This document shows positions 8,266 to 25,273 of a stretch of DNA of 64,000 bases, piece by piece. The stretch's first letter is position 1, and each line of letters opens with the position of its first letter. Origin of the DNA: Escherichia coli. Lineage in GTDB: Bacteria; Pseudomonadota; Gammaproteobacteria; Enterobacterales; Enterobacteriaceae. The notes under the pieces were generated by a model that did not search any database, was not told the DNA's origin, and saw only the letters and a program-made list of their open reading frames with translations. Where the stretch lies: the NCBI RefSeq assembly GCF_965641715.1, contig NZ_OZ282453.1; one strand, written 5' to 3'. Position numbers and translations under genes: made by a program.

Positions 8266-8447
8266 TATTTACCTCCGCCGACAGACGGCTGTGTACGGTC
8301 GAGATATCGCGCCACCAGCCACGACCAGAACAGGCACAGCCCCCCGGCAACAACAAAACCCGCCGGGGGATAAATCAGCCAGGCACCATACGCCAGCAAA
8401 AGCGCACCCAGCACGCCCACCAGTGGTGCGAGAATTATCAGAAACAT
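8265..8447 (-). CDS. Small membrane protein
   Basis: 60 aa, two hydrophobic helices, sits between terL and portal. Confidence 0.35.
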
Positions 8448-8458
8448 AATGACCTCGG

Positions 8459-9184
8459 TTAAAGCGAGCGGATGCCCACGCTGACCAGATGTTCAGACAG
8501 ATCCGGCTCCGGTTCACCACCATTGACCAGCATCCGGCTCATTGCTGTAAACATCGCAACAGGGCCGTCGATTTTGGCTTCCAGCGTGGATTTATTCGGG
8601 AAGATATTGTCGTTTTTGTCCGGTTTTACCGTAACGTTAGACATCATCCAGTTCATGACCGGATGATTGCTGTGATGGAAACGCCCGGCATAGACCAGTG
8701 ATTCCGTTTCCTTCATGGCCTCTGACAGATTGCGAACCGTCTGCGGAACCTCCACCAGCGGTATCCCTTCTTCAGCCAGTGCCAGGCTGAACTGCATCGC
8801 GCTCCACGGGTCAAATCCCAGCTCCCTGAGGTTTTCACCACCAATCCATTCCAGTAAGTCACTTTTTATCTGAGCATGATCGATAACATCACCATCCGTC
8901 AGAATCAGCTTATCCATCTCCGCCCACTTCCGGTAAAGTTCTGCCTGCTGCCGCGAGCATCGTTCCAGCCGTCCTTCCGGAAGCCAGAATTTAAAATCGG
9001 CATGAACATGCCCGTTATCCGTTCGCCAGAGTTTTGCCGCCGCACAGATATCAATCTTATGAGCAAGGTCAACGCCGACCCACATGGGATACGTTTTCAG
9101 CTCATGTCGTGGGGCAATGTATTCGCACTTCTCCCACTTAATCATGTCCATCCAGGCAGACTCTGCTGTTACCCACACATTCAT
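8459..9184 (-). pseudogene. Terminase large subunit, C-terminal nuclease fragment (gene split by satellite)
   Basis: Aligns to C-terminal half of intact TerL 9715..11376; upstream in-frame sequence runs into the satellite junction. Confidence 0.8.
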
Positions 9185-9188
9185 GTGT

Positions 9189-9202
9189 TTTGTGAGAATA
9201 TT
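9189..9202. repeat. Satellite junction core, left copy (tttgtgagaatatt)
   Basis: First 7 bp identical to 24246..24252, 11/14 over 14 bp; same codon phase in terL. Confidence 0.55.
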
Positions 9203-9270
9203 TCAAGTTTTTTAAAATCACCTGTATATCAATCATTTAAAATGAAAAAACAGTCTTTATAAATCATCGA

Positions 9271-9291
9271 GCAATACACAGCGCAATACAC
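9271..9291. repeat. Tandem GCAATACAC motifs, candidate integrase arm-type sites (left arm)
   Basis: gcaatacacagcgcaatacac; near-identical copy at 24095..24115 beside int. Confidence 0.4.
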
Positions 9292-9480
9292 GTATCTGTA
9301 TTGTTTTAATGCTGATACACACCGTTTTTTGATACAGTGATTCGACCTACCATCGCGAAGCATTTTTTATTTCTTGTGTGTAACAATCTGACGAGGTGAG
9401 CACTCAAAGAGATAAGAGGCAGTAGAAATTTCGATCCCCCCCCTGAATGCAATTTTTCGTATATATATATACAAAACAGT

Positions 9481-9632
9481 GCGGGTTATGCGGGTTAGCG
9501 GGTTATCTTCGCGTGCTAAGTATTTTTTACTCTTTAATATCAATACGTTAAAAAACAACGTATCTAAATATCAGCCAGAATGTAACCCGCAAGACATTCA
9601 AAATAACCCGCAAACACCACTCAAATAACCCG
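9481..9632. repeat. Iteron cluster (3 direct GCGGGTTAT + 3 inverted copies around AT-rich spacer)
   Basis: Same 9-mer family as the cluster next to the primase gene. Confidence 0.55.
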
Positions 9633-9714
9633 CAAAAACATCCCTGAAAGTGGGTGCCGATAATACTGAAAATTTATTCCATTAAATGAGCATTGTCCTC
9701 TCTCATCCATTCCG

Positions 9715-11376
9715 TTACACACCATCAAACGTCGCAAGCCGCTCTTTGTGGCTGTCGCTCATATCGAATGCAAATTCCTCATGCTCTGCCTGGAATGTGC
9801 CAAACGCCATCAGCGCCGCAACGCTCGGGTCTATCTTGTTGGATGATTTTTTCTTGTTCGGCTTGATATTGGCGTTCGCGTCACTCTGCATCACAACATT
9901 ACTCATTGACCAGGCCAGCACCGGATCACCACGATGCACAATCACCTTCCGGTTAACAAAAACTTCGAACGATTTCGCCGCCGGACTGAAACGAAGGTAC
10001 GTTTGCGGGAACGGCTCCACCTCAAATCCCGCCCCCTGTAGCTGTGTTCTCAGGTGAGTGGCGTTCCATGTATCGAAGCCCACCAGCCTGATACTGAAAT
10101 TCTCTGCATCCACCATGATGTCATCACGGATACGGTCATAATCAATGCAGTCACCCGGTGTTGTGCGTATCCAGCCCGCCTTTACCCACTGGCGATAAAT
10201 GGCGCGGTTTTTATTGGCGGGGTTCTGTAACTGAAATTCCGGCAGATAGTGACGGGAAACCAGCATAATCTTTTTACCGACCGGAAAGGCATAGCACACG
10301 CTGGAAATATCGCTGGTTGATGATAAGTCCAGCCCCACGTAGCACTCCTGCCCGTATAAATCCGCCTCCGCGAACGTTCCGGCGCACTCCGCCCATGCAC
10401 CGTTACCCATCCACGGCGTAGCCCCCTGACACCAGATATTGAATCGCTTGGTGAGCATTTCCACCCACTGCGACGGAATACCCCGCGCTTTCTGGATGGT
10501 TGAGGCCAGTTTTTCACGATCGACGGAAACATCGATATTGGGATTCGCCTTTATCCACATCGCCGGATCGTCAACCTCGCTTTCATCATCCAGCTCGTAA
10601 ATCAGTACGAACATGGATTCGTTCACCTCTTCACCATCCAGTATCTGGCAGCAATAGTCGTAGTGTTGTTTACAGGCTGAAACAACGTTGCTCCCCGATG
10701 TGGTGATGGCAAATAATAACCCCTCCGGACGCGCCCCCATTCCCAGTTCAAGCGCGGAATAAACCCCGTTGTCAGGGTGCAGGTGATATTCATCTACAAT
10801 GGCAAGACTCGGGTTTGTACCTTCAATGGTTGCCGCTTTTGCTGCCAGTGGCTTTAACAGGCTGTTGGTTTTCGGGTGTATCACCTTGTGTGCCTGAATA
10901 TTTACCCGCTTTCGTAACGGTCGGGATAAAAGGCACATCTGACGCGCATCATCAAACACGATCCGCGCCTGATCACGACTCACGGCGGCGGTGTAAATAT
11001 CCTGCTGCCCGTTTTCCATAACCAGAAACCAGTTAGCCAGGATAGCGGCGACCGTGGATTTGGCATTTTTTCGCGGTACTTCAATGAATGCGCTGGTGTA
11101 TTTGCGCCGTCCGGTGGCCTTAACCTTAAAGCCCAGGATGCACGCAAAGGCGAACTGCTGCCACGGCTCCAGCTCAATGGGGCTACCGCGCATTGCGCCT
11201 TTTACGTGCGGACACACCCTGGAAAAGGCAATAAACTGCTCCACGACCTCCGGATCGAACGTGTAAAGGGGGTTTTCAAGGTCAGAAAAATACCGTTTAA
11301 CGGCCTGTTTCAGTCGTTTACAGGCCGTAATTTTGCCGTTTTTTACGCCTTCTGCGTACTCATGCCAGGCGGTCAA
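9715..11376 (-). CDS. Terminase large subunit (satellite, intact)
   Basis: 553 aa with ATPase motifs (VPRKNAKST, AIVDEYH) and C-terminal nuclease region. Confidence 0.85.
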   Translation of the reverse strand: MTAWHEYAEGVKNGKITACKRLKQAVKRYFSDLENPLYTFDPEVVEQFIAFSRVCPHVKGAMRGSPIELEPWQQFAFACILGFKVKATGRRKYTSAFIEVPRKNAKSTVAAILANWFLVMENGQQDIYTAAVSRDQARIVFDDARQMCLLSRPLRKRVNIQAHKVIHPKTNSLLKPLAAKAATIEGTNPSLAIVDEYHLHPDNGVYSALELGMGARPEGLLFAITTSGSNVVSACKQHYDYCCQILDGEEVNESMFVLIYELDDESEVDDPAMWIKANPNIDVSVDREKLASTIQKARGIPSQWVEMLTKRFNIWCQGATPWMGNGAWAECAGTFAEADLYGQECYVGLDLSSTSDISSVCYAFPVGKKIMLVSRHYLPEFQLQNPANKNRAIYRQWVKAGWIRTTPGDCIDYDRIRDDIMVDAENFSIRLVGFDTWNATHLRTQLQGAGFEVEPFPQTYLRFSPAAKSFEVFVNRKVIVHRGDPVLAWSMSNVVMQSDANANIKPNKKKSSNKIDPSVAALMAFGTFQAEHEEFAFDMSDSHKERLATFDGV

Positions 11377-11716
11377 GCTCGTCCTCTTCCTCTGTTTCCG
11401 GTGGATTTCTGCGGCGACTTACCGGGTCAAAACCCAGCAAAGAAGCCATTTTGATCATTATTCTTTCAGCGTCAGCCTTTGCGCTCAGGGCGGGGTTTCT
11501 GCTCTCGCTGCCCTGACTGTTAACAATGCTGAACCCGCGCGTGGCAAGGTCTTCGACGGCTTTGCGGTATATGGAGTAGTTAACGCAATACAGCTCCAGA
11601 TTGCTCCAGTCGGCGGGGGTAAGGTCTTCCCGTCCGGAAAGCTGGCGCGATTTTTCCTTCCACTGCCTGACCGCGATTTCATCCAGGTAAGCGGGGGCTT
11701 TTGGTGGTCTTGCCAT
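11360..11716 (-). CDS. Terminase small subunit (satellite)
   Basis: Starts MARPPKAPAYLDE..; overlaps terL start; ORF track extends to 11857. Confidence 0.7.
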   Translation of the reverse strand: MARPPKAPAYLDEIAVRQWKEKSRQLSGREDLTPADWSNLELYCVNYSIYRKAVEDLATRGFSIVNSQGSESRNPALSAKADAERIMIKMASLLGFDPVSRRRNPPETEEEDELDRLA

Positions 11717-12004
11717 GTTCTTTTTTCGCCCAATTATTTTCAAAAAAATTCCCGTGCACAAAAATTTGAGGAGGCGGTCGGTGTCCGGCAGGGACGGTTT
11801 TGTCCTGAAAACCTCCCCCCCCCCCTCTGACGGCCTCACCAGCGATTGCGAAAACATTCCATGACCTCGCGGTCACGGTCGGTTAATCGCTTCGCTGTGG
11901 TGCGTTCTGTGCGCCCTGTCCTGTTGGCTTTGTGCCCTGTCTCCTGTGTCTTCCATAAGTCACGCTGCCTTATCAGTCCACGTATCAGCCTGTTTTGCTC
12001 CTGT

Positions 12005-12445
12005 TCAGTCATCATCGCCATACATCCAGTCGTTACGGTGTGCCGCCCGTTCTTCCTGCTCGCGATACATACCCGCCTTACGGTTCGCTTTCGTGGCTGG
12101 ATCTTCCCGTGTTGTCTTACGGTTATGGCACGTCTGGCACAATGCCTGGTGGTTCCACTCAGGCCAGAAGAGAACATCACCGCCGCCATTGATGGGAATG
12201 ATGTGATCCACCACAAGAGCTGGCGTATAAATCCCCTTAGCCAGACAACGCACGCATAACGGATTTTTGCTCAGGTACAGGGCGCGGTATTTGTCCCACT
12301 GTCGGGAATACCCGCGCGCGCGGCGGTGTCCCCGTCTGGCATCCTCTGCACGCCATGCAGCCCGCCTGTGATCTTCGCACTTGCCGGACTTCACGCGCTT
12401 ATTACAGCCCGGCTCAGTGCATCGCCTTAATGGTTGCCACGGCAT
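12005..12445 (-). CDS. HNH endonuclease (packaging-associated)
   Basis: Cys-rich N-terminus and HNH motif (..DHIIPINGGG..H..C..CH). Confidence 0.8.
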   Translation of the reverse strand: MPWQPLRRCTEPGCNKRVKSGKCEDHRRAAWRAEDARRGHRRARGYSRQWDKYRALYLSKNPLCVRCLAKGIYTPALVVDHIIPINGGGDVLFWPEWNHQALCQTCHNRKTTREDPATKANRKAGMYREQEERAAHRNDWMYGDDD

Positions 12446-12744
12446 CAGTACACCCCTACATCACGATAAACCGACCAGAGCGCAGAAATAGCCATAGGCA
12501 GTTCAGACTGCTCCACAGGTGAAACCGCTTCCCTGTTCTCGTACAGGAAAGCGATGTACATCAGGCAACCAACACGTATTGCCGGGGTAAATTCCAGCCC
12601 GTCTTCAAAACGTTTCCCGATATGCTTCTGGCAGGCTTCCAGCGCCGCATCGGTATACATTTTCAGAAGTTCGCCCTCACCTGAGAAGTCATCAAGGCGA
12701 AGATGTGCCCTGACTTCATCAGGTGTAATTTTTTCTTCACTCAT
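12445..12744 (-). CDS. gp6-like head-tail connector (satellite)
   Basis: MSEEKITPDEVRAHLRLDD.. N-terminus; internal ATG, ORF track start 12825. Confidence 0.55.
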   Translation of the reverse strand: MSEEKITPDEVRAHLRLDDFSGEGELLKMYTDAALEACQKHIGKRFEDGLEFTPAIRVGCLMYIAFLYENREAVSPVEQSELPMAISALWSVYRDVGVY

Positions 12745-13951
12745 CTTTTTCACCTTTAATTTCCACCGTCTGCTTCCATGCCTGGCTGAACTCGTCACCA
12801 CCTTCACGCGGCGGCATCCCCTCACGTTCGCGGGCTTCGTTCGGATTCATGATCCCGTTCTTAATCCCTTTCTCATACGTGGCGTAACGCTCGGTTGGAG
12901 TAGCGCGCAGTAAATCGGCTGAATCAAACTCAACCAGATAACGGGTACCAGGTATGGGAGAAGCCACCAGCAAAGCGGCCTTAATTTGCTGTTCGAAGTT
13001 CGCCAGCCATGGGCGCATTGTCATGGTCAGAAACGCGCGGCTTGCCTCACTGAAATTGCTGTAGGTGCTGTTGCTGTATTCCTGAAGAAAAATCGGCGAC
13101 ACGTTGAACATCCGGGCGATGTCTTCAATGGAGAAGCGACGGGAGGCCAGCCATTCTGCATCCTGGTTACTCATCCCCAGTTGCTTGTAATCCATACCCC
13201 CTTCAAGGATTGGCGTTTTTCCGGCATTTTTCGCCCCCTTGTAGCGTTCCAGGGCGTCTAATGCCTGTTTACCTTTCACGCCGTCCAGCCATTCGCCTGA
13301 CGTGATAATCCCTGCCGCCATCATGCCATCTTTCATAATGCTGGCTCCGTGACGCTGTTGAGCAAGGCCAAGCCCCAGCGCCTCACGGCAAATCGTGACA
13401 GGGGAGCGCCCCAGAAAGCCATCATCCGAGGCATAGCGGAGATGCAGAACTTCTTCCTGCAAATACGTGCGCACCGTTCCTGTATAGGGTTCGGTGATGG
13501 TATAGCGGTATTTGTGTGCGCCAGTGCGTTCCGGTACAACACACCCCGGCGCATAAGGATGAAGTGATTTTGGCTGACCGTCCCGCCCCCACTCAATAAC
13601 CGCATAGGCGTTACCGTTCAGCAGGCAGTGACGCATCATTGTGCGTTTAAACTGGTAAGGTGTCTGGCACGAATTAGGCTGCTCATTCAGCAGAATATCG
13701 ACCGGGTGACTGTCCAGCCATTCCCGCGCCTCCCTGCCCTTGTCATTGCGTACCAGATACAGATAACACGGCATCGTGGCCACCGCCTCAGCGATGACAG
13801 AAACCGCGTTCATCACAGCAGGCAATGATTCAGCCGTCCCGGCAGAAACATATTCTCCGGATCCGGTATTCGGTACGCCGGACAGCGCCAGAAAATCATC
13901 AATGGACAGGTTACGCAGATCGCTTTTTTTACGACTAAAAGGCCACCACAT
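12737..13951 (-). CDS. Portal protein (satellite, HK97 family)
   Basis: Portal-like sequence; ATG at 13951 abuts protease stop; ORF track start 14041. Confidence 0.8.
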   Translation of the reverse strand: MWWPFSRKKSDLRNLSIDDFLALSGVPNTGSGEYVSAGTAESLPAVMNAVSVIAEAVATMPCYLYLVRNDKGREAREWLDSHPVDILLNEQPNSCQTPYQFKRTMMRHCLLNGNAYAVIEWGRDGQPKSLHPYAPGCVVPERTGAHKYRYTITEPYTGTVRTYLQEEVLHLRYASDDGFLGRSPVTICREALGLGLAQQRHGASIMKDGMMAAGIITSGEWLDGVKGKQALDALERYKGAKNAGKTPILEGGMDYKQLGMSNQDAEWLASRRFSIEDIARMFNVSPIFLQEYSNSTYSNFSEASRAFLTMTMRPWLANFEQQIKAALLVASPIPGTRYLVEFDSADLLRATPTERYATYEKGIKNGIMNPNEAREREGMPPREGGDEFSQAWKQTVEIKGEKDE

Positions 13952-13952
13952 A

Positions 13953-14513
13953 TCACAACCCCGCCAGTTCAGCCCAGCGATGACGATTATTTCCTGTCGG
14001 GCGTAATTCAGGGTGCTGTGCAAACAACGAACGGTGGGCAATCTCCACGCCGGATTCGGGATAAGCAGGCATCGACGTTATCGTGATTTCACGGAGTTCT
14101 GCGGCGGTAACAGTGCGCAGATACGGTTTTTGCGCGATATTCCACTCTTCGCATAATGCGCGAAAGCCAAAGCTCATTCCTGTAATGTCGCCACGCTCCA
14201 CCAGCGTAAGCACATCTTTTCCAAGCTGGGTATCAGGCGGTGTCAGTTCAAAACGTAGCCCGGTGTTGTCCTCAGTCAGTACCAGTGTTCCGGATTTGGT
14301 GCGCCCCAGCAGTCGGGTATAGTCATGCTCATACAGGCAGCGCACATCATTACCCGCCGCCAGATAGTCAGCAAAAGCCCCCGGCGTGAACTGTTCGCGG
14401 AATTCGTCCCAGATAATTTCTGAAAGGCTGTTCCAGCGAACGGCATACCCCACCAGCTTTTTATTGCTGGCGGTCAGTTCAGATGTGCGGATTTCAAAAT
14501 CGGTGTTTTTCAT
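13953..14513 (-). CDS. Prohead protease (satellite)
   Basis: 186 aa, ..GYAVRWNS.. region matching HK97 protease pattern. Confidence 0.8.
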   Translation of the reverse strand: MKNTDFEIRTSELTASNKKLVGYAVRWNSLSEIIWDEFREQFTPGAFADYLAAGNDVRCLYEHDYTRLLGRTKSGTLVLTEDNTGLRFELTPPDTQLGKDVLTLVERGDITGMSFGFRALCEEWNIAQKPYLRTVTAAELREITITSMPAYPESGVEIAHRSLFAQHPELRPTGNNRHRWAELAGL

Positions 14514-14567
14514 CGGTGTACTCCATAAAGCTGAAAAAGGAGGCCGCAGCCTCCTCCTTACTCATGA

Positions 14568-15737
14568 CTAGCCAGCTTTCATTTCCAGAATTTTGATGGC
14601 GTTTGAATCCACCACACCACCGCCCAGATATTTATCCGTGTGGACCTTGTAGAATCCGGGCTCAGTAATGTTGTCCGGTCGGGTGCGAATCCCTGTTACA
14701 TGATCAACGATGAAATAACCACGACTGAAATCGCCAACCGCTAGCGGTGCTTTTCCTGCGCCGATGTCCGGCATGGACTCCAGGCAGAAAACAGGACGAC
14801 CAAGCAACATATCCGGCGCACCTTCTTTAAGGCTGTCGCGCCAGATATAATCGCCATTCTCATTTTTCAGCTTCTGTAGTGTCCCTGCCGTGCCCGAGTT
14901 CATCACCCAGACGGCATTTTTGCGGTATTTCGCTTTCAGCTTGTAGAGAATGTCGATCAGTTCGTCCGCTGTAATGGCGGTTCCACTTGCCGCTACCACT
15001 TTTTCAATGGTGCCAAAAGCGCGGGTTTTGTCACTGGTCGCCGCACGGGTGTAAGCCATGAAGCCTTTCGGCTTGCCGTTACCGTCGCCATTAACAAAAT
15101 CATCCTCTTCGGTGCTGGCGAACGTGTCGGCAATTTCGGAGGATAACCAGCCCAGAATATCCACCTCTGAAAAATCCAGGATTTCCTGCGTGGTTTTCGG
15201 GTAGGCGTAGATCGGATTCAGCTTGATGGTTACACGTTCAATTTTCGGGGTGTTGGTTTCACTACGTGCGCAGCCTTCTGTGCCTCGTCCTACAGTTGCG
15301 CCGCCAGTGGAAACCAGTTTCTGAAACTCATTTGATTTTGCGGTCTTCACGGTCGCGATCACGCGCATAACACTGTCATCCTGTAGCTGGCGCATGACTT
15401 CGCGATCAAGCTCAGGAATTACGGTATATCCGCCATCCCTGCCGCTGTCAGTGCTGGTGGACAGTGATCGCACATCTCCGGTTACGATGTAGTTACGCAA
15501 TTCATCAGATGATAATTTCTGGATGCCCGTTCCTGGCTTGCTGCGTTCTTCATCAGCCACAGACTCGAGGCGGTAAATTTCTGTGTCGAGGGAATCGGCT
15601 TTTGCACGCAGTTCATCAAACTGTTTGCCCTCGTCATCGTTCAGGCTGCGGTTTTCACTGTCGGCTTTTTCCAGCAGGGATCGCATCTGGTTTTTCAGGG
15701 CGGTTTTTTGCTGGCGGAGTTCGATTAATTTCTTCAT
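14568..15737 (-). CDS. Major capsid protein (satellite, HK97 fold)
   Basis: 389 aa, coiled N-terminal segment, homologous architecture to 5176..6381. Confidence 0.85.
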   Translation of the reverse strand: MKKLIELRQQKTALKNQMRSLLEKADSENRSLNDDEGKQFDELRAKADSLDTEIYRLESVADEERSKPGTGIQKLSSDELRNYIVTGDVRSLSTSTDSGRDGGYTVIPELDREVMRQLQDDSVMRVIATVKTAKSNEFQKLVSTGGATVGRGTEGCARSETNTPKIERVTIKLNPIYAYPKTTQEILDFSEVDILGWLSSEIADTFASTEEDDFVNGDGNGKPKGFMAYTRAATSDKTRAFGTIEKVVAASGTAITADELIDILYKLKAKYRKNAVWVMNSGTAGTLQKLKNENGDYIWRDSLKEGAPDMLLGRPVFCLESMPDIGAGKAPLAVGDFSRGYFIVDHVTGIRTRPDNITEPGFYKVHTDKYLGGGVVDSNAIKILEMKAG

Positions 15738-15974
15738 GAAGGTTTTCTCGTATTGGTTAAGATTCAGGACGTGAAACCAACACGGAGGGAGCGCCGCCCG
15801 ACACTCTCGGCATCTCGCAGATCAACCCGGCATCGCGCAGGGGGTCAGGCGGCATTGTGGCGGCTCACGTCTGAGTGCCACACGCCAACATATACATAAA
15901 AATCAGTATGTAAACATCAGCCAGAATCACCGAACAACCTGGAACAACCACGAACAAATAATTTACAAAACCTG

Positions 15975-16000
15975 AAAAAAAGACCTGGAGAAAATCCAGG
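15975..16000 (-). terminator. Intrinsic terminator upstream of satellite capsid operon
   Basis: Hairpin cctgga/tccagg followed by T-run on minus strand, directly after ORF 16012..16260. Confidence 0.5.
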
Positions 16001-16011
16001 CCTTTATCGCT

Positions 16012-16260
16012 TTATTGTTTCACTGGATCCCGCATTCTGCGTCTTATTTTCCACAGATATTCGATCATCGCTTCCACCTGCTCACGATTGGTTGCGAAAA
16101 TTTCCCCGGTCAGTGAGCTGCGCAGAAAATCATGATGATCCACAACAAACAACGCATCGGAAGAAAGCAGACGGCGATATTTTTTTGCTGTCGTGGTTTC
16201 CAGATCATCAAAACCATGAAACTTTTTATGTTGCTGGACTTCTTCAAATGTCACTGGCAT
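16012..16260 (-). CDS. Hypothetical protein
   Basis: 82 aa ORF, 4-nt overlap with upstream ProQ-like gene. Confidence 0.4.
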   Translation of the reverse strand: MPVTFEEVQQHKKFHGFDDLETTTAKKYRRLLSSDALFVVDHHDFLRSSLTGEIFATNREQVEAMIEYLWKIRRRMRDPVKQ

Positions 16261-16793
16261 GTATCCCCCTTTGCCGCCCGGCGCTGGCGCTTGTGCTTCT
16301 CATTCAGCGCCATCAGCCGCGTTTCTGCCTCCTGCTGTTCCTGTGGTGTCACTTCCCCACATGGCTGGCCTTTCAGGTCGTATCGTACCCCACCAGCAAC
16401 CAGGGCGCGGTAATAGCGCGGAGACTGCGCATAAGATGCCAGCGTCGCACGTAATGCCCCCGGCCCGAATGCCAGCCCCCTGACGGCGAGATCCTGCATC
16501 AGGTCGTCGAATATCCCCACCTTAAGCGGCTTCGGTGCTTCCCTGTTGAATAAGTCAGGCCACATCTCAGTGAGGCGGTTAACGCGCCTGCGGTTTTTGC
16601 GCTGGCGTTTGGTCATATGCCGCCACGGTGTCACCCCTGTGGGCTGCCCTTTGCGGCTCTGCTGTGCGTTCTGATTGCCGGGTATCACTTTATGCGCCGA
16701 TGTGGTTTTATCCCGCTCTTGCGCCGCCTGCGTCGTTTTCTGCGGCGTGCCGTAAATGCCTTTCGGTTTTCGGTTAATGGTCAGCTTTGTCAT
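16251..16793 (-). CDS. ProQ/FinO-domain RNA-binding protein with basic N-terminal extension
   Basis: ..PLKVGIFDDL..RATLASYAQSPRYYRAL..RYDLKGQPCGEV.. parallels ProQ N-terminal domain. Confidence 0.6.
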   Translation of the reverse strand: MTKLTINRKPKGIYGTPQKTTQAAQERDKTTSAHKVIPGNQNAQQSRKGQPTGVTPWRHMTKRQRKNRRRVNRLTEMWPDLFNREAPKPLKVGIFDDLMQDLAVRGLAFGPGALRATLASYAQSPRYYRALVAGGVRYDLKGQPCGEVTPQEQQEAETRLMALNEKHKRQRRAAKGDTCQ

Positions 16794-16957
16794 GCCTTCC
16801 CCTGTAATTACTCTGTTCGCTGTTGTGAATTAAAACGGTATGTTATCCCCGTACAGGTCATCGTGCTGGCCTGTCTGTTGTTTTGCCCTGTTCAGTGCGT
16901 CAGTGGCCTGCCCCTGTTGGCCTTTTTTGCCGCCCGGTCGCGCCGTTCTCGCACTGA

Positions 16958-17254: not shown

Positions 17255-17318
17255 GCTGTCTGCTCTCCGGTTTTAACGTTGATGGTTACGCTTGTTTACA
17301 CCCTTACGGTGAAATTCT

Positions 17319-17441
17319 GCGGGTTATAATCGCACTTTTGCGGGTTATAACTGCCGTTTTGCGGGTTACGTGCGGGTTATTGATTTCCTTTTTATTCATA
17401 CAGTTAATGCACTTATATACATGATAACCCGCATAACCCGC
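17319..17441. repeat. Iteron cluster, candidate satellite origin (4 direct GCGGGTTAT + 2 inverted, AT-rich centre)
   Basis: Immediately downstream of primase/helicase gene. Confidence 0.6.
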
Positions 17442-17464
17442 AACTTTTCACCTCACACAGGGGG

Positions 17465-19588
17465 TTAATCTTCTGCCTCAGGCTGGAACATCAGCACGTA
17501 AAAAACATGCTGCTTCCCCCCAATTTTGCCGAGCGCCTTTTTCTTGTAACGGCGATCGTTACCCGCTTCCAGCATTCCGGCAGCACTCAACGCGCGGGCA
17601 AAGTGAGACGGATTAAATCCCTGTGCTATCTCACCCTCAAATACATGCGGGAACGTGTAAAAACGGAACTCGTCATCTTCGTTTCTGATACTCCCCTTTC
17701 TGTATCCGGCAAGTTCTTTAATCGATAAATCACGCTCGTCGGTATTGGGCCACGGAAGGTATCTGCTGAATCCGAACGACGCTAAAAAAGCTTCTGCCTG
17801 TTCAACCATCTGTTTAAATTCCCTGTTACCCGTGCCGAACTCCTTCACCCAGGCATTAAAATTATGCTGTATGGCATCGCGGCATTCCTGCTCATCCCAG
17901 CCAGTAACATGACCTGAAAGCACAAGCGCGGCCTCCAGTATGGCAAATCGCTCCCCCACACGGTGAACCTGTTCGCCGTAGCTCTCCGGTATCAGGTTGC
18001 GCCACCGCTCACGGCATGTCCTTACCGTGTCCTTTGCCTCCTGCTGGTGTTCTGCCAGCCATTTAACCCACTCACGACCCGCCGCCCCGTGATTTTCTGT
18101 CCAGGCATCCTTTAACGCGTCTGCGTGCGCCTTTCCGGTGCTGTATTCGTGAAATTGCGTGGCTTTTTCCATCGGAACGTTAAGCAGGCGGACAAGCTGC
18201 CCCGCTTTGACTTTTATCCCCTCCGTTTTGAGGAATGTCTCAACGTCCATTTCTCCGGTGCTGATTGCCACCGTGCGCCAGTGTTTGATCTCCCTGTTGC
18301 CGCCGTCCTTCGCCCCCTGTAATTTCCCCGAACCGTTAAACAGCGTATAGGCTGACGTGGACACCTCCCGCGCGTTTCCGGCCTGGCCTATTTCATCCAG
18401 GGGTAAAAGCCCGTCATTGTGTGCCTCTGCTTCGTTGGCGATACCTAACGCTGTGCCGTACCAGGTCAGCCGCTGCGCGTCCGGCTCTCCCCATAAACTT
18501 GATGCGATGTTCTGTGTGGTGGTTTTCCCTGCCGATGACTGTTCGAAAAGATGTACCCCGAAGCCGTCAGCGCCCACCAGCCCGATTAATGGTGCGGATA
18601 ACGATACCGCCACACCCAGCATCATGGACGGATTACCACCAGCCAGCCGCGCAACGGTATCGCGCCAGCCCTCCGCCGTTCCTGCCACGGAATAGCCATT
18701 AACAGCAGCCGTTTTTCCGGTAAACAGGACTGGCTTTTCGCAATCACCAATGACCGAACCGTCCGGCATGATGTACGCGCCAAAATGCCAGCCCGTTGTT
18801 GTGCTTAACTGCCATTCCTCATGGCTTCCGCTTAACTGCATCCAGTCAGCCAGGATAGCCCTGTATTTACCGTTGGTTGTTACGTTCAGTCCGTGGTCTT
18901 TCAGCAACCGCCAGCCGTCACGGTCGCCAATGCCACCGCACGGAACCGCCATTGTGATGACTTCATGGTTTGCTAATTTTTTCCAGCGCATCACGCGGTA
19001 ATGCTCTTTACCGATTGTCCCCGTTCCCAGTAGTTCAAGCGGGGAACATAACCACGTCTCAGGCCGGATAATTTCGCCTGACTGCTTATCCACTTTTGGC
19101 GTTACCCAGAAAACACCATCGGCGCGACTTTCAACGCGGGGCTTTAATTCATCATCGCCCTGGATTTCTGTGATTTTTTTCTTTAAGGGCAACACCAGAC
19201 TTTCCCCGCGCTCGTATTCGTCTTTGAGGCGAGGCAACTGGTCGGATAAATCCGCCGGGCTGATGTCAGTTATCCCCGCGTATTCGTATACGGTCTTCAC
19301 GCCAGCCACAGCCAGCAACGTGACGATCTGTGTAAGGCTACGTTCAGTGATGTGCCCTGCGCGGTAAACACGCACACACTGACGGCTATCATCAATAATT
19401 TGATAACCGGTAATATCTTTCAGGTGTTCATCTGACAGAACGACAGGCGGCACATTGTCGGCGGCAATATGCTTACCTGCCCATTCCTGCCACTCTTTCG
19501 CATGGCTCCACGCATCACTACCCGCAAAGATGATAACCTCCGTCATTTTGTCGGCTGGCTGGTGCTTTAAGTTTGGTGCGCGCTTCAT
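17465..19588 (-). CDS. Primase/helicase-type replication protein
   Basis: 707 aa with Walker A (SSAGKTT), P4-alpha/PICI pri-rep-like position next to iterons. Confidence 0.65.
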   Translation of the reverse strand: MKRAPNLKHQPADKMTEVIIFAGSDAWSHAKEWQEWAGKHIAADNVPPVVLSDEHLKDITGYQIIDDSRQCVRVYRAGHITERSLTQIVTLLAVAGVKTVYEYAGITDISPADLSDQLPRLKDEYERGESLVLPLKKKITEIQGDDELKPRVESRADGVFWVTPKVDKQSGEIIRPETWLCSPLELLGTGTIGKEHYRVMRWKKLANHEVITMAVPCGGIGDRDGWRLLKDHGLNVTTNGKYRAILADWMQLSGSHEEWQLSTTTGWHFGAYIMPDGSVIGDCEKPVLFTGKTAAVNGYSVAGTAEGWRDTVARLAGGNPSMMLGVAVSLSAPLIGLVGADGFGVHLFEQSSAGKTTTQNIASSLWGEPDAQRLTWYGTALGIANEAEAHNDGLLPLDEIGQAGNAREVSTSAYTLFNGSGKLQGAKDGGNREIKHWRTVAISTGEMDVETFLKTEGIKVKAGQLVRLLNVPMEKATQFHEYSTGKAHADALKDAWTENHGAAGREWVKWLAEHQQEAKDTVRTCRERWRNLIPESYGEQVHRVGERFAILEAALVLSGHVTGWDEQECRDAIQHNFNAWVKEFGTGNREFKQMVEQAEAFLASFGFSRYLPWPNTDERDLSIKELAGYRKGSIRNEDDEFRFYTFPHVFEGEIAQGFNPSHFARALSAAGMLEAGNDRRYKKKALGKIGGKQHVFYVLMFQPEAED

Positions 19589-19899
19589 TTTGCCTTTCCC
19601 CGTTCACGAATAATTTCACGTACTGCCTTAATGCGTTCCATTCCTGTAACGCGCATGATTCTGTCGATGTCGCTTAATTCTGCTGGTGGTGCTTTACTTA
19701 CCAAGGTGAACTCCCTGTCAAAGCGCATATGTGACGACACGCAGGGATGCGCATAACCTTCGCGGATATAGGTCACACGAAAATCATCGACGGTTTTGAT
19801 CGTTATCGTGCTGCCGTATTTATCCTGGAAAATATCGCCGGGGCGGATTTCAGGCCGAGCGGGGCCGCTGGCAGTAAAGCCAGAATTTTTCTTTTTCAT
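19585..19899 (-). CDS. Hypothetical protein
   Basis: 104 aa, 4-nt overlap with primase gene. Confidence 0.4.
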   Translation of the reverse strand: MKKKNSGFTASGPARPEIRPGDIFQDKYGSTITIKTVDDFRVTYIREGYAHPCVSSHMRFDREFTLVSKAPPAELSDIDRIMRVTGMERIKAVREIIRERGKAK

Positions 19900-19904
19900 G
19901 TTTT

Positions 19905-20153
19905 TTACTCCAGAGGCAGCTTTTTAGCGGCGAGCTCAATATCAGATGTCAGAGAAACCTGTGTATTTGCCAGGTCTAACAACAAAGAAATAAGAATTTC
20001 TTCTCTGCTATCGGATTTATCGGTGCTAAGGCTGTTCATCCACATATTGACGACTTCCCTGATTTTTTTCGCAGAGTGCAGGGCTTCAAATGCCAGGTCT
20101 TCAATATCATGTTTATTTCGCATAATCGCCCCCGCCATTTTCACAATCAGCAA
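19905..20153 (-). CDS. Hypothetical protein
   Basis: 82 aa ORF in early leftward operon. Confidence 0.3.
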   Translation of the reverse strand: MLIVKMAGAIMRNKHDIEDLAFEALHSAKKIREVVNMWMNSLSTDKSDSREEILISLLLDLANTQVSLTSDIELAAKKLPLE

Positions 20154-20358
20154 TCAGGATGGCTTTTGCCTCATTCAGCGCCATATCAGCACTAAATTGC
20201 ATAACAGCCAGTGAGTGAGGAACGAAAGCCCCGGCATATTCTGTTTCGCTGGTGGCGTGCTTATGCGCCTTGTCTGCGATAACAGAAATATCAATCAGCG
20301 CGTGCATCAGCGTTTTGATGGCTTCGGCGGCTGCGTCCGGACGGGTGTTATTGCACAT
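20113..20358 (-). CDS. Hypothetical protein
   Basis: 81 aa ORF, first gene of leftward operon. Confidence 0.3.
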   Translation of the reverse strand: MCNNTRPDAAAEAIKTLMHALIDISVIADKAHKHATSETEYAGAFVPHSLAVMQFSADMALNEAKAILIADCENGGGDYAK

Positions 20359-20651
20359 GGCGCACCTCCTGACGAATACGGGCAGCGAATACCATCACGC
20401 AGCCAGCCGGGGATTGCTGGCGTGCTTCCTGTTCGCTAGTGGCCTCAATGGTAATCACACGCGGTTGTGCCGTGCTCAGGGCGATAAAACGCCAGATGTA
20501 TTTATTCAGGTTGTGCGAGTCCCGCCCTTGCGGGTGTGTGGTATGATTTAACATAGCTACCTCGATAATCTTGCTATCGTTGGTGGTTAGAAGCCCGGTT
20601 AGTGTTAGCGCACTGCCGGGTTTCGTCGTTTGTATTTCAATAAAACCATTG

Positions 20652-20729
20652 GTGTGTTTCATGTTATTTTGGAGTGAAACACACGTCAAGCCTTTTTTGT
20701 ATTTCTTTTTTGTGTATACTGAAACACAC
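20652..20729. promoter_or_regulatory. Divergent promoter/operator region with three TGAAACACAC half-sites
   Basis: Perfect 10-bp inverted repeat GTGTGTTTCA..TGAAACACAC plus third copy overlapping a TATACT -10. Confidence 0.45.
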
Positions 20730-20750
20730 CAAATTTGAGGAGTTTCAGTT

Positions 20751-21056
20751 ATGGCGACTACCAACAAAAACGCTAAATCACAATTGACCACCGTCAGAGT
20801 CCCCCACGATGTTATGGAGGGCATGGAATCCGTAAAACTGGACGGCGAAAGCAACGCCGGATTCATAGTAACCGCCATGCGCGGTGAGATCGCCCGCCGC
20901 CAGGCAGAAGGAAGCGGAGAAAATCCCCTGGTTTCTTCGCTCGATGCACTGGCGCAGGTGGAAAAAATTGGAGTCAAGGCTGCCGAGGAGATCGGGCAAC
21001 TCGTCACCGTCGCGCGTGAAGAACTCCAGCGACGCAAGGTCAAAGAGCAGGAATAG
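20751..21056 (+). CDS. Ribbon-helix-helix-like regulator (tentative)
   Basis: GAGGAG RBS; N-terminal TTVRVPHDVMEGMESV..AGFIVTAMRGEI pattern. Confidence 0.45.
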   Translation: MATTNKNAKSQLTTVRVPHDVMEGMESVKLDGESNAGFIVTAMRGEIARRQAEGSGENPLVSSLDALAQVEKIGVKAAEEIGQLVTVAREELQRRKVKEQE

Positions 21057-21113
21057 CCACTATCAGCGCCATAGTTTGAGGAACGCAGGCGCATTGCTTT
21101 ACAGGACAGCACC

Positions 21114-21293
21114 ATGAGCGACACAGAATCAACCAAAACACCATCACCAACTCGTAAGAGACGACGCAAAAATATAGCGCATGAACATGAATCAGAAAGA
21201 TTCGCACCTTGTTCGTTTGCTCTTGAGAAATTCCTTAAAGAGCACAGGAAAAAGCTCTCGTTGCAAACCTTGGAACGAACCAAATCTGACTGA
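21114..21293 (+). CDS. Small basic protein (59 aa)
   Basis: ORF below track cutoff, followed by two intrinsic terminators. Confidence 0.25.
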   Translation: MSDTESTKTPSPTRKRRRKNIAHEHESERFAPCSFALEKFLKEHRKKLSLQTLERTKSD

Positions 21294-21359
21294 TCACATT
21301 GCCCACCAGCCGCAAATGTGGCATTGTTGGTGATGCTTTTGTTTTCCCTTGTTCCCACT

Positions 21360-21388
21360 GGCGACCCTTTTGCGGTCGCCTTTGTTTT
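21360..21388 (+). terminator. Intrinsic terminator
   Basis: ggcgaccc tttt gcggtcgcc followed by T-rich run. Confidence 0.45.
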
Positions 21389-21483
21389 GCCTGTTATCCG
21401 GCAATAGTGGCGCTTCGTCACCTGTCTGATATAATTCCACAGCTTATATTCATTTTTTGCGCAGTAGGTTAATTGTTCGCAAG

Positions 21484-21515
21484 GGCGCTCCGGCAACGGG
21501 GCGCTTTTTGTTTTT
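21484..21515 (+). terminator. Intrinsic terminator with GCAA tetraloop
   Basis: gcgctccg GCAA cggggcgc then tttttgttttt. Confidence 0.4.
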
Positions 21516-21673
21516 ACCCACCAGCACAATAAAAATCTTCATTTTCCATTTTTGTAAAATTTCATGCTTTCCGGACGACTGGTCATATGTCATTTTTTAG
21601 CAGAAGATTTTGCCTTGCTGGTGGGTAGCTTCCCGGTCAACACGATGTACCGTATAATCAACACCGCGTGTGG

Positions 21674-22252
21674 TTACTGAATACGCTCACCAAAGTAAAA
21701 CTCAGGCTGGTATTCACGTATCAGCCTTTTTTCTTCTTCCTCCAGCTCACGCTTTTTGCGCTTACATGCCTGTAGCTCCCTCCCCTTCTCACTGGCACTT
21801 ATCTGGTATTGCTCTTTGCGGCGGGAAAAATCCTGTAATGCGCCCCACGGGATACCATAAGCCCCCGTTTTTCTGATACCCGGTATCACATTTCTGAATA
21901 CCCAGTTACTGAAACGATGAGCAAATGTGCCAGGCGTCGTTGCTTTGCGGCTGCGGGCTATTAGTTTGTAGAAACCTGACTCGGAGATAATGCTCATATT
22001 CTGATTTCCTCCGGGGGTGTAAGTTAAATTTACTCCCTTTTCGTCATCATCAAGCATCTGCAACGCCGTACGCGAATTGGTCAATTCCAGCGCAGCACAA
22101 ACATCCTTTGCAACAAACCACGGATCGCCGTTTAGATACACCACACGAACATCCACGCCATCAAAGCGCAGAACGACCAGATCACGAATATCACAGAATT
22201 TTTTCACATGACGTGCGTCACCCTTGCCCGTCACGGCAATATTTTTATTCAT
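21674..22252 (-). CDS. Bro-N domain protein (antirepressor-like)
   Basis: ..FDGVDVRVVYLNGDPWFVAKDVCAALE.. matches Bro-N consensus. Confidence 0.7.
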   Translation of the reverse strand: MNKNIAVTGKGDARHVKKFCDIRDLVVLRFDGVDVRVVYLNGDPWFVAKDVCAALELTNSRTALQMLDDDEKGVNLTYTPGGNQNMSIISESGFYKLIARSRKATTPGTFAHRFSNWVFRNVIPGIRKTGAYGIPWGALQDFSRRKEQYQISASEKGRELQACKRKKRELEEEEKRLIREYQPEFYFGERIQ

Positions 22253-22309
22253 TGCTTTTTACCTCACATACAAAAAACCCCGCATTGCGTGGTGCGGGGT
22301 TGTCGGTAA

Positions 22310-22588
22310 TTACTTATTGGCGTTTTTGTATGGGCTGTTTACTTCCTTTACTCCTGGCGGATGCATAACCCACCAGAGCACATCAGAGAGCAACCAGGAA
22401 ACAGACACTTTCCCTAAATGAGCACGAGCAGGAAATGCTCCCTCCTGTTCAAGTACCCAACGTCTGCTTCTTGAAAGCCCGGTACGATTGGCACACTCAT
22501 GTTCGCGTATACGGCGATCATACGGTTCGCCATGATCTTTCAGAATCTGAATGCGTTCTTCGGGTGTAGGATAAATAAATTTTTGCAT
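22310..22588 (-). CDS. AlpA-family regulator / excisionase-like
   Basis: HECANRTGLSRSRRWVLEQEGAFP..VSWLLSDVLWWV; internal ATG, ORF track start 22618 is TTG. Confidence 0.6.
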   Translation of the reverse strand: MQKFIYPTPEERIQILKDHGEPYDRRIREHECANRTGLSRSRRWVLEQEGAFPARAHLGKVSVSWLLSDVLWWVMHPPGVKEVNSPYKNANK

Positions 22589-22651
22589 AAAAATATCACC
22601 TATAAAAAAACCCGCCAAAAGACGGGTTGATTATATCTCATTTAATTTAGC

Positions 22652-22873
22652 TCAGGGTTTCCATTCACCTTTTACCCATTCCAGCACCTCAGATAAGCGC
22701 CAGACTTTTGTTTGTGGGCCAATACATATTTTTCGTGGAAATTTTCCTTCCTTTTCAAGTAACGATCTGTGTCTCCTGCCAAGAGCGGTTAACCATGCAC
22801 ATTCATCCTCCTTAATCATCCTGTCGATTGTTTCATCATTTTCAAGTTCTTCACGCGTAACTATTTGAATCAT
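22652..22873 (-). CDS. AlpA-family regulator / excisionase-like
   Basis: DECAWLTALGRRHRSLLEKEGKFP..VWRLSEVLEWV; start uncertain (22885, 22873 or 22819). Confidence 0.6.
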   Translation of the reverse strand: MIQIVTREELENDETIDRMIKEDECAWLTALGRRHRSLLEKEGKFPRKICIGPQTKVWRLSEVLEWVKGEWKP

Positions 22874-24074
22874 TACTGTCACCACTAATTTGCTTATTCA
22901 GATAGTCGTACCACCAGTTCATAGCTTCTTTTTTTCTGTCCATATACTGGCTTCTGTTATAAACCCCGGCAACACCGCCTAATGTGTGCCCAAGCAACTG
23001 TTCAACCACATTATGTTCAAAACCATGATCACTTAGTTTTGTGGCAAACACTCTTCGCATATCATGCGCCGTCCATTTCTCCGAGTGTTTCATCCTTTTC
23101 CATGTCTTACCGATAGTTACGCTTGCCGTACACTGACGCATATCAAACCCAATCACATTTTCTTTGTTACCTGTTATTTTTTTTAACGTAACTAACCAGT
23201 TAAACATGCCATCAGGAATCGGTCTGATTATTTCCCTGCCATTTTTGCTATGATCAGCGGGAACGCGCCATAATTTCTTATCAAAATCCCACTCTACCCA
23301 GGACGACAGTAATACTTCTGACAGTCGACAACCAAAAACTACCAGGAAACGTAAAATAATTCGGTTTTCATATGATAATTCGTGATTGTCATAATCAGTA
23401 TTAATACTTCGCCATAAATCTCTGATTTCATCATCTGTTAAAACCCTGCTTCTTCGCGCAGACTTTTTTCCCACATCACAGACCTCAAGATCATCAATTT
23501 CATGACTAATCGCGTATTTTCTTACCCTACAAAATTTAAGCGCCTGTTTTGATATACGCAACAAAGCTCCGGCCTGTACAGGTGCTACTTTTTTTATTTT
23601 GTCAAAACACTTAATCCACATAGATATAGAGCAATCACTAAGTGGTACATGACCAATCACCGGATAAATATGTTTACCAAAGCACTGCCTGATATGTTCT
23701 GCTCCCCTACGCTTATCCATTGCATAATTATCAAGCCAGTATTCAAGTGCCTCACGAACGGTAACAGGTTGCAAGGTGGCTTCCCGTTCAATTTTTATCT
23801 GAATCCGTGGATCTCTGCCCTCCGCAAGCCAGGTTCGACACTGATCGCGCATCTCTCTCGCTGATTTGAGACTCAGATCAGGATATTTTCCAAGTGTCAG
23901 CCAGATGGGCGCGGTTCCCCTTCCCGCCAGTCTGTAAAAGAAAACAAAACTAACACATCCGTATTTACTGACCCGTACCGAAAGCCCGTTACCATCAGCG
24001 ATGGTTTCCTGCCTCTCACTCCTGCGCCCAAGCAGGGAACGAAGTTTTTTATCGCTCAGTTTGTTTAGCGCCAT
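22851..24074 (-). CDS. Tyrosine integrase, P4 type (satellite)
   Basis: MALNKLSDKKLRSL.. N-terminus, C-terminal HxxR..Y catalytic region; ORF track start 24110. Confidence 0.85.
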   Translation of the reverse strand: MALNKLSDKKLRSLLGRRSERQETIADGNGLSVRVSKYGCVSFVFFYRLAGRGTAPIWLTLGKYPDLSLKSAREMRDQCRTWLAEGRDPRIQIKIEREATLQPVTVREALEYWLDNYAMDKRRGAEHIRQCFGKHIYPVIGHVPLSDCSISMWIKCFDKIKKVAPVQAGALLRISKQALKFCRVRKYAISHEIDDLEVCDVGKKSARRSRVLTDDEIRDLWRSINTDYDNHELSYENRIILRFLVVFGCRLSEVLLSSWVEWDFDKKLWRVPADHSKNGREIIRPIPDGMFNWLVTLKKITGNKENVIGFDMRQCTASVTIGKTWKRMKHSEKWTAHDMRRVFATKLSDHGFEHNVVEQLLGHTLGGVAGVYNRSQYMDRKKEAMNWWYDYLNKQISGDSNDSNSYA

Positions 24075-24094
24075 GTGATTTATAACCCGTTTTT

Positions 24095-24115
24095 GCAATA
24101 CACAGTGCAATACAC
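24095..24115. repeat. Tandem GCAATACAC motifs, candidate integrase arm-type sites (right arm)
   Basis: gcaatacacagtgcaatacac just upstream of int; copy at 9271..9291. Confidence 0.4.
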
Positions 24116-24245
24116 AAATGATGAAAACAGCCAGAACCTTCCAGAAAAAACAAAAACGACGAACAAGAAAAAATCTTTTTCTTTCATTTGGTTACTAAAA
24201 AAATCAGGACAGGTCGCACTGTTGTTACGGCGTGATGTTACTTTC

Positions 24246-24259
24246 TTTGTGAAAAAATT
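24246..24259. repeat. Satellite junction core, right copy (tttgtgaaaaaatt)
   Basis: First 7 bp identical to 9189..9195; encodes ..FTK of the terL N-terminal fragment. Confidence 0.55.
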
Positions 24260-25273
24260 CACCCGCGCCGAGACCTGCTCCTTCGCCTTTTTCGCCAGAC
24301 GACGCAGATCATCCCAGCGTTTACAGATGCCCAGGCCGGGATTCGCTTTCTGCCAGACCGTTTCATCAAACGGATCATCTCCCTCATCGAGCGTGTAAAT
24401 GATCGCAAAGTAAGAGTCGTCTTTTACCGCGCCCTCCACGTCACTGTTATAGCCACGCAATACCTTAATGGCGTAATCACGCTGCTCGTAACAAATCCCT
24501 TCCTTGTTAAACCCTGCCGTGGTGATACCAAATAAAAGGGACTGCAGACGGGCACCGGTTGCCGTTTCCAGAACGTCCCACACGTCACGGGTTTTATGTG
24601 CATGCAGCTCATCAATAATGGCGCAGTGGATGTTCAGACCGTCCAGGTTGTTTGCATCCGAGGAAAGCGGTTCAAATTTTGATGCGCTCTGCTCCTGGTA
24701 GATCGCCAGCTTGTTGAAATCAAATAACCGCCCGAGTGTCGACCGGGCTTTTCTGACCATATTTTTGGCGTCTTCAAACACGATTCTGGCCTGGTCACGC
24801 GTGGTTGCGGCTGAATACACCTCAGCTCCACCTTCACCATCTGCCCCCGTCATATACAGGCCGATACCCGATGACAGAGTTGATTTTGCGTTTTTACGGG
24901 CGACTTCGTTGTACGCCGTCCGGAACCGGCGCACCATCACCGGACGTCCGCTGCCATCGCTGCGCATGACAACTTCCCCGGTCTCTTCATTCACCAGCGG
25001 AATGACAAAACCAAAAATATTAATGAGGATAAATACATGCCAGTCCATCAACTCAATGGGCTGGCCTGCCAGCGCCCCTTTTACATGAGGCACAAATTTG
25101 TAGAAATTCAGGATGTGCTGCGCACGGGGTTCACTGAAATAAATCCCCCGCTCTTCGCCGTACTTCAGATCATCAAGAAAACGCTGGCAGGCCAGACGGA
25201 CAAATTCCCCAGCAACAATTTCTCCTGCAACAACACGTTCGGCGTAGCGGATCCCGTCAGCCACTTTTGCCAT
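24253..25273 (-). pseudogene. Terminase large subunit, N-terminal ATPase fragment (gene split by satellite)
   Basis: ORF 24080..25273: first ~340 aa align to TerL N-terminus (VARKNAKST, AIIDELH), then 54 unrelated residues read into the satellite. Confidence 0.8.

Follow-up and report, generated by a model that had tools for sequence, protein, structure and literature searches.

A phage satellite with a capsid-forming-type late module inside the terminase gene of an Escherichia coli prophage

Phage-inducible chromosomal islands (PICIs) residing within a late gene of a prophage were described and catalogued in 2023 as helper-embedded PICIs (HE-PICIs) by Tommasini, Mageeney & Williams in NAR Genomics and Bioinformatics (PMC10111431). 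Their terL sites, located in the gene for the terminase large subunit (TerL), were named A:Terminase_1:132 and A:Terminase_1:246, the latter appearing as :245 once in the main text (PMC10111431). The type HE-PICI, 11capE/61icd of Escherichia coli NRG857c, was induced experimentally: after mitomycin C treatment the composite excised and replicated, precise excision of the satellite followed about 2 h later, and no virions were recovered (PMC10111431). The capsid-forming PICIs (cf-PICIs) were defined in separate work (bioRxiv 10.1101/2022.09.08.507074; Alqurainy et al, 2023) and are covered by a SatelliteFinder model (PMC10085698). Among them, EcCIEDL933 is the one shown by experiment to form small capsids from its own proteins, which it fills by means of its own HNH, TerS and TerL proteins, so that tails are all it takes from its helper (bioRxiv 10.1101/2022.09.08.507074). 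Here, we analyzed a 64,000-nucleotide stretch of the E. coli contig NZ_OZ282453.1 (assembly GCF_965641715.1; hereafter, the window), in which a satellite of 15,057 bp, counting one core copy (9196–24245, minus strand), is embedded in the terL gene of a lambdoid prophage. We conclude that it is very probably an HE-PICI with a cf-PICI late module in helper terL, whose excision would be driven by helper late expression and which would block helper packaging until then.

Because of the 15,057-bp insert, the helper terL is split at codon 343. Its 5′ part (24246–25273, minus strand) comprises codons 1–343, covering the ATPase domain and the start of the nuclease domain, and its 3′ part (8459–9195, minus strand) carries the nuclease domain (residues 343–585). 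A preliminary description made from the window sequence had read the open reading frame (ORF) 24080–25273 as the N-terminal part of TerL running into unrelated sequence, and ORF 8459–9184 as the C-terminal nuclease part. Both readings hold: in the integrated state, the terL′ ORF (24080–25273, minus strand) encodes TerL residues 1–343 (..ARVNFFTK) followed by 55 unrelated codons and a TAA at 24080–24082, and the frame upstream of ORF 8459–9184 reads ..TK-HMNVWVTAESAW... The reported colinearity of both halves with the intact 553-aa TerL of the satellite is borne out at 32% identity through the junction, and the insert of ~15 kb is indeed in phase and carries a P4-type integrase gene (Arm-DNA-bind_3 and Phage_integrase domains). 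The proposed division into an ATPase half and a nuclease half applies in outline, but the break falls ~60 residues into the nuclease-domain profile and not exactly at the domain border.

The attachment core is a 7-bp identity block, TCACAAA, present at attL (24246–24252, minus strand), where it corresponds to codons F-T-K (residues 341–343) of terL, and at attR (9189–9195, minus strand); on the plus strand, both cores read TTTGTGA. This repeat had been located correctly in the preliminary description, whereas its figure of 11 identical positions out of 14 did not stand, the best 14-bp window around the core repeat having 12. When we joined 25273–24246 to 9188–8459 in silico, as that description had suggested, an uninterrupted 1,758-nt ORF of 585 aa was recreated, with both expected Pfam domains (TerL_ATPase, residues 112–268; TerL_nuclease, residues 283–563). 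The insert brings no substitute 3′ end for terL. If the element excised precisely, the original gene would be recovered without change, with the attB junction ..TTTTTCACAAAACAC.. in terL and the attP junction ..AATATTCTCACAAAGAAAGTAAC.. in the satellite.

To look for empty and occupied sites, we compared the window with 5,426 complete E. coli genomes. A 312-nt probe spanning the rejoined terL junction had matches in 934 genomes; in 905 of them the site was uninterrupted, with 80% or more of the probe aligned, and in 5 it was 100% identical to the rejoined junction. Among these five is NZ_CM149870.1, in which the potB/potC locus likewise holds a prophage, with an intact terL. The structural region of this prophage is 99.8–100% identical to window positions 1–9202, and the alignment then skips from 9202 straight to 24246. 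That prophage holds IS4 and IS3 insertions (IS, insertion sequence), none of which occurs in window 1–9202. With probes for the occupied junctions, 35 complete genomes gave the same attL and 33 the same attR (E. coli 042 is one of them), which corresponds to an occupancy of ~3.7% among genomes with this terL family. Taken by itself, a 7-bp repeat is statistically meaningless; its weight comes from the match to the restored junction and from the attL and attR junctions shared across genomes. Judged by these junctions, the insertion is real, precise and recurrent. Temperate coliphages that have been isolated or induced, phi467, Evi and PhiR49_2 among them, also have uninterrupted terL genes of this type (96–98% identity), and the helper family therefore does make virions. 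In one genome, E. coli ETEC4090 (NZ_CP122620.1), attL (3033720–3034019) and attR (2884891–2885190) lie ~149 kb apart, a spacing that points to a rearrangement of the chromosome between prophages once the satellite had integrated.

The HE-PICI diagnostic is a doubled motif, tgTGTATTGCantgTGTATTGCa, present as two co-oriented copies on either side of the attP center, at distances of 81±2 bp upstream and 132±2 bp downstream (PMC10111431). In the window, the doubled TGTATTGC motif has exactly two matches in 64 kb, against 0.01 expected, and both are on the minus strand. The upstream copy, TGTATTGCgcTGTGTATTGC (9271–9290), ends 79 nt from the core center, and the downstream copy, TGTATTGCacTGTGTATTGC (24095–24114), starts 135 nt from it. 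Measured in the same way, the spacing in 11capE is 81.5/133.5 nt, so that the sums are 214 nt here and 215 nt there. The integrase shares 50% identity with its 11capE counterpart, compared with 41–42% for the integrases of chromosomal cf-PICIs.

The published catalogue contains the very site occupied here. Its Supplementary File 1 lists Eco33.15.A_Terminase_1_246, which is the E. coli 042 copy (FN554766.1/2250958-2235714), and Eco14930.15.A_Terminase_1_246 (UCWC01000005.1/287384-302438), of 15,055 bp and with the att identity 'tcacaaa'; for the site group A:Terminase_1:246, 68 attL sequences are aligned, whose core (TTACCAA, TCACAAA or TCACGAA) differs according to which synonymous codons the target uses (PMC10111431). 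The window attL is identical to that of Eco14930.15, and the attR differs by one base. Against the element of E. coli 042, at the same locus, 87% of the window element aligns at 97.5% identity, and the integrases are 99.75% identical. On this near-identity to a catalogued member, we place the integrase in the HE-PICI clade and in the subclade of this site; the window element is itself a catalogued member or a sister copy of one. It shares with the A:Terminase_1:246 group the terL codon, the ~15-kb size, the doubled motif and the orientation, and with Eco14930.15 the core TCACAAA, unlike the E. coli 042 copy, whose core is TTACCAA and which contains an additional T. The HE-PICI features are thus found together: location in a prophage late gene, disruption of that gene with no replacement carried in attP, co-oriented int, alpA and primase genes, the doubled motif, the integrase and the attachment sequences. 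The 'helper-embedded' arrangement at this very site has been known since 2023. What sets the window copy apart from the catalogued members is an amber codon in the tape-measure gene of the helper, together with a frameshift in the satellite ssb; otherwise nothing essential is different.

The early genes of the satellite follow the layout of 11capE, which is int, alpA, a Bro zone, primase, ssb and a late zone. Reading from attL, all on the minus strand, they encode a tyrosine integrase (22851–24074; 407 aa from the ATG at 24074) with a P4-type arm-binding domain (Arm-DNA-bind_3 plus Phage_integrase); two AlpA-family regulators/excisionases (22652–22885, 77 aa; 22310–22618, 102 aa); a Bro-N/anti-repressor-like protein (21674–22252, 192 aa), whose E. 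coli 042 homolog is annotated BRO-N; a DUF927-type primase/replicase (17465–19588, 707 aa); and the frameshifted ssb (16830–17254). Both elements also share the integrase clade and the motif spacing. They differ in that 11capE is 11 kb long, sits in capsid gene E and has a late zone with only a capsid and a decoration gene. Without terS or terL, 11capE is presumed to use the packaging machinery of its helper, whereas the window element has a full head-and-packaging set including TerL.

This late module was assigned with PHROG profiles and also lies on the minus strand. It comprises an HK97-type major capsid protein (14568–15737, 389 aa), a prohead protease (13953–14513), a portal protein (12737–13954), an Ad1-type head-tail adaptor (12445–12744) as the sole connector gene found, an HNH endonuclease regarded as a packaging accessory (12005–12445), a P27-family TerS (11360–11857) and an intact TerL (9715–11376) that is 32% identical to the helper TerL. 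The true start of TerS is probably internal, the 042 homolog having 118 aa. Since the two TerL proteins share only 32% identity despite their colinearity, the satellite TerL is no recent copy of the interrupted gene. The insert also has a divergent small gene and a gene for a DUF4222 protein. The core genes of the satellite are all co-oriented with the helper late operon (terS/terL, head and tail genes), and int, both alpA genes, the primase gene and the whole packaging module are intact ORFs. No tail or lysis family matched any of the 19 insert proteins that were scanned, a set that does not cover all small ORFs, and the RefSeq annotation of the E. coli 042 homolog lists no tail or lysis genes. 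An Rfam scan for P4-type immunity RNAs and other satellite RNAs returned none inside the element, all of its matches (sok, DicF and two tRNAs) lying in the helper. At the position of satellite terL homologous to the attachment core, the codons L-T-K of ..EMLTKRF.. (10459–10467, calculated from the codon index) contain TCACCAA, which is identical at 6 of 7 positions to either common core (TTACCAA or TCACAAA) within unrelated flanks (12 of 36 positions identical).

In its gene content, the element corresponds to a cf-PICI. It has the PICI core of integrase, AlpA-type regulator and primase/replicase; 10 of the 11 SatelliteFinder components are present ('Type B'), with a single connector/adaptor gene; and its 15,057 bp agree with the 10–15 kb given as the size of cf-PICIs. 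Like EcCIEDL933 and its relatives, it has the order int, alpA, primase, capsid, protease, portal, connector, HNH, TerS, TerL, spans ~15 kb and is without tail or lysis genes. The terL site is not used by prophages, yet it lies itself inside a prophage, a case that the original cf-PICI search criterion did not foresee. From capsid to terL, the late module shares 97% identity with an island that strain PEC414 carries in its chromosome between rcnR and thiM (NZ_CM168006.1, 1681438–1695131), and ~71–87% identity at the DNA level with an O157:H7 island between roxA and phoQ (NZ_CP038313.1), which we provisionally take to be of the EcCIEDL933 type and which has two connector genes in contrast to the one in the window element. 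The int–alpA region has no nucleotide similarity to either chromosomal island. Because the late modules match and the integrases are only 41–42% identical, we regard the element as a mosaic of a cf-PICI late module and a different integration module. At a minimum identity of 95%, the late module occurs in 160 complete genomes, of which only ~35 hold it embedded in terL, a distribution that implies exchange of integration modules on a common late-module backbone.

Described cf-PICIs differ from the window element in their position, being chromosomal, apart from their helper and acting in trans, whereas this one lies inside helper terL. EcCIEDL933 has been reported as not blocking its helper, and the window element would be expected to block helper packaging in cis. 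The HE-PICI study cites the cf-PICI work only as evidence that PICIs gain late genes (PMC10111431). A literature search with incomplete journal coverage found no explicit link between cf-PICIs and HE-PICIs, and the cf-PICI papers searched make no mention of embedding in a prophage. With P4-like satellites, the element has only the integrase type (Arm-DNA-bind_3 plus Phage_integrase) in common; we rejected an assignment to that group, as no PHROG match to Sid, Psu or Delta was obtained and an HK97-type capsid gene is present instead. In a phage-genome collection searched for the element and the composite, no composite was deposited as a phage, and the only result was ~76% similarity to the capsid and portal genes in one 16.5-kb 'induced prophage' record and two others. 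The first of these, LR881103.1 ('Escherichia phage vB_KppS-Ant', 16,548 bp, induced prophage), with ~76% identity to the satellite capsid–portal region, is probably a cf-PICI deposited as a phage.

The arrangement allows a sequence of events to be proposed. The P4-clade tyrosine integrase of the satellite recombined the 7-bp core TCACAAA in terL of the potB/potC prophage, which is lambdoid and HK97-headed. The sequence itself would start when the helper undergoes SOS induction, with Q-antiterminated late transcription reading terS–terL′ straight into int and the first alpA, and helper late expression would thereby yield integrase and excisionase. As in 11capE, the composite would excise and replicate first, and the satellite would excise late, restoring terL; as in EcCIEDL933, it would package itself into its own small heads with its own HNH, TerS and TerL, to which helper tails would be joined. 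Until excision, the helper lacks a TerL of its own, and packaging of helper DNA is not expected. The idea that the satellite TerL might act as a 'backup copy' in place of the helper TerL comes from Tommasini et al (PMC10111431).

The junction between terL′ and int is compact. The terL′ frame stops at the TAA at 24082–24080, 5 nt before the int ATG at 24074, in a stop-restart arrangement, and no terminator-like hairpin occurs on the minus strand from 25273 to 22628, that is, from helper terS/terL′ to the end of the first alpA; the first one is at 22628–22609. The region between attL and int (24072–24252) contains a run of six Ts, compared with seven in E. coli 042, where, owing to the extra T, the 343 codons of terL′ continue through a 57-codon linker into int as one ORF of 807 aa. 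We had considered a conserved terL′–int frame as a sign of designed coupling and rejected it, the frame relation differing between the window copy and 042. Because this relation is not conserved, we treat a translational link between terL′ and int as speculative. Such a link, together with a late module that amounts to a full cf-PICI packaging set, may be new; the HE-PICI study makes neither point explicit. We also put forward, with considerable doubt, that terL-site HE-PICIs are full cf-PICIs that merge two strategies—a helper that is packaging-dead yet tail-competent until excision, and unrelated TerS, TerL and HNH proteins of their own—and that they tie int synthesis to terL′ translation, helper late expression being the excision trigger. 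As they carry a full and unrelated packaging set, interruption of helper terL would cost them nothing.

The use of helper terL as an attachment site, with helper packaging disabled until excision, had been presented in the preliminary description as a strategy for which it knew of no earlier account. It agrees with the published HE-PICI model, in which only the tails of the helper are needed, by extension to the terL sites, and the claim of novelty falls, given that HE-PICIs were described in 2023 with the terL site and catalogue entries included (PMC10111431). The comparison with known satellites that the same description called for gave clear matches, in the 97% identity of the late module to the PEC414 cf-PICI and in the HE-PICI motif and att sequences. 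Its claim that helper tail production is left intact is doubtful for the window copy. In the tape-measure gene of the helper (start at 1984, minus strand), codon 607 of 1,075 is an in-frame TAG (amber; 164–166). A single G-to-A change from the intact counterpart in NZ_CM149870.1, which is otherwise 99.8% identical, accounts for it; either this is a sequencing error or the helper of this strain may have a tail defect. Within the satellite, ssb is one nucleotide shorter than the E. coli 042 homolog, owing to a deletion near 17018/17019, so that the ORF ends at 16958 and encodes 98 aa instead of 141, with loss of the C-terminal tail. If these lesions are real, the composite may be unable to supply tails and may be one of the HE-PICIs that Tommasini et al call 'abandoned'.

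Several observations weigh against an active satellite whose excision is driven by helper late expression. With an amber codon in the tape-measure gene and a frameshifted ssb, the composite may be decaying or immobile, and many HE-PICI helpers look truncated (PMC10111431). The terL′–int frame relation, stop-restart here and an in-frame fusion in 042, may make any coupling incidental, and the satellite may have an int promoter of its own, which is compatible with a simple promoter scan. The only induction experiment concerns another site (11capE, in capsid gene E) and gave no virions, and behavior at the terL site is extrapolated from it. Some of these points would also fit a fossil, namely a once-mobile element left as a decaying remnant in terL of a now-cryptic prophage, with no current interplay between helper and satellite in this strain. 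Beyond the two lesions and the truncated helpers, IS insertions in related composites (IS1414 in EC416, an IS3 family transposase in TUM1881) point the same way. Such a state is conceivable, but we consider it rather unlikely: int, both alpA genes, the primase gene and the packaging module are all intact, the two att cores and the two copies of the doubled motif are perfect, the helper structural region is 99.8–100% identical to that of a prophage with intact terL while being free of its IS4 and IS3 insertions, and single-base lesions could be sequencing errors. Moreover, this alternative bears on the state of the present copy and not on the nature of the element.

An accidental integration of a chromosomal cf-PICI into terL, with no dedicated site, would account for the near-identical late modules at chromosomal positions (rcnR/thiM, roxA/phoQ) in ~125 other complete genomes, and HE-PICI integrases are known to make off-target insertions (PMC10111431). 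We regard it as very improbable, since the chromosomal relatives have integrases of 41–42% identity and no nucleotide similarity in int–alpA, the same terL codon is occupied in 35 complete genomes and represented by 68 catalogued attL sequences, the core follows the synonymous codons of the target, and the HE-PICI-specific doubled motif is found at the correct spacing. The different integration module and this motif together effectively rule the accident out. Finally, two homologous HK97-type head and packaging sets within 25 kb could mislead an assembler. The result, in place of a discrete insertion, would be a chimeric assembly, which had been named at the outset as something that would undo the claim, or two prophages in tandem or recombined with each other. 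The chance of this is negligible: the two TerL proteins are only ~32% identical, the junctions are base-precise with a 7-bp core, and the same junctions occur in independently finished genomes, E. coli 042 among them. A chimera is ruled out because attL and attR recur in 35 and 33 complete genomes, respectively, and tandem prophages are dismissed on the same junctions. An HE-PICI with a cf-PICI late module, resident in helper terL, thus remains the reading that we prefer.

Regulated gene integrity, also called active lysogeny, is exemplified by the skin element in sigK of Bacillus subtilis and by phage phi10403S in comK of Listeria. Like the satellite, such elements interrupt a gene without bringing a replacement end, and the gene is restored by timed, precise excision. 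Unlike them, the satellite interrupts a gene that belongs to its helper phage, and the timing would serve the satellite and not the cell. The analogy was drawn by Tommasini et al (PMC10111431).

In helper-embedded satellites, the parasite of a virus lands in an essential gene of that virus, and reproduction of the helper then depends on the departure of the satellite. The window provides a confirmatory, clean and well-delimited example of this published class, links HE-PICIs to cf-PICIs and offers a possible test case for the biology of the terL site. There are also consequences for annotation: satellites in such composites are invisible to tools that forbid neighboring phage genes, and the composites give rise to 'pseudogene' terminases and to spurious terminase–integrase fusions that have leaked into phage protein families. 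Some catalogue entries are tagged 'reannotate terminase/int fusion' (PMC10111431). Positions 690–811 of the 812 in the profile of phrog_9, a PHROG family named 'terminase large subunit', match the last 130 residues of the window integrase (E = 2.6e-25); because of this match, the family evidently includes terL′::int fusion ORFs from such composites.

The helper occupies the first part of the window, in which the genes of the first 36 kb, mostly on the minus strand, are those of a lambdoid prophage with an HK97-type head. The prophage is located at potB/potC, and its integrase gene (42114–43232, plus strand), at the potB/potC end, abuts potC/potD. Upstream of the split terL on the minus strand are the genes for a Q-like late antiterminator (29222–29917), an endolysin (26494–26877), an HNH endonuclease (25904–26290) and, directly adjacent to terL, a P27-family small terminase (25273–25755). 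The late genes downstream of terL (1–8447, minus strand) run off the left end of the window and include those for the portal (7024–8265), the prohead protease (6396–7082), the HK97-type capsid (5176–6381) and the major tail protein (2720–3424), as well as head-tail genes and the G/T chaperones. Rfam matches in the helper correspond to the sok antitoxin RNA of a hok/sok type I toxin–antitoxin system and the small RNA DicF (31927–32101, minus strand, and 38647–38698, plus strand, respectively). Genes for tRNAs Arg-tct and Met-cat lie at 28859–29012, downstream of Q.

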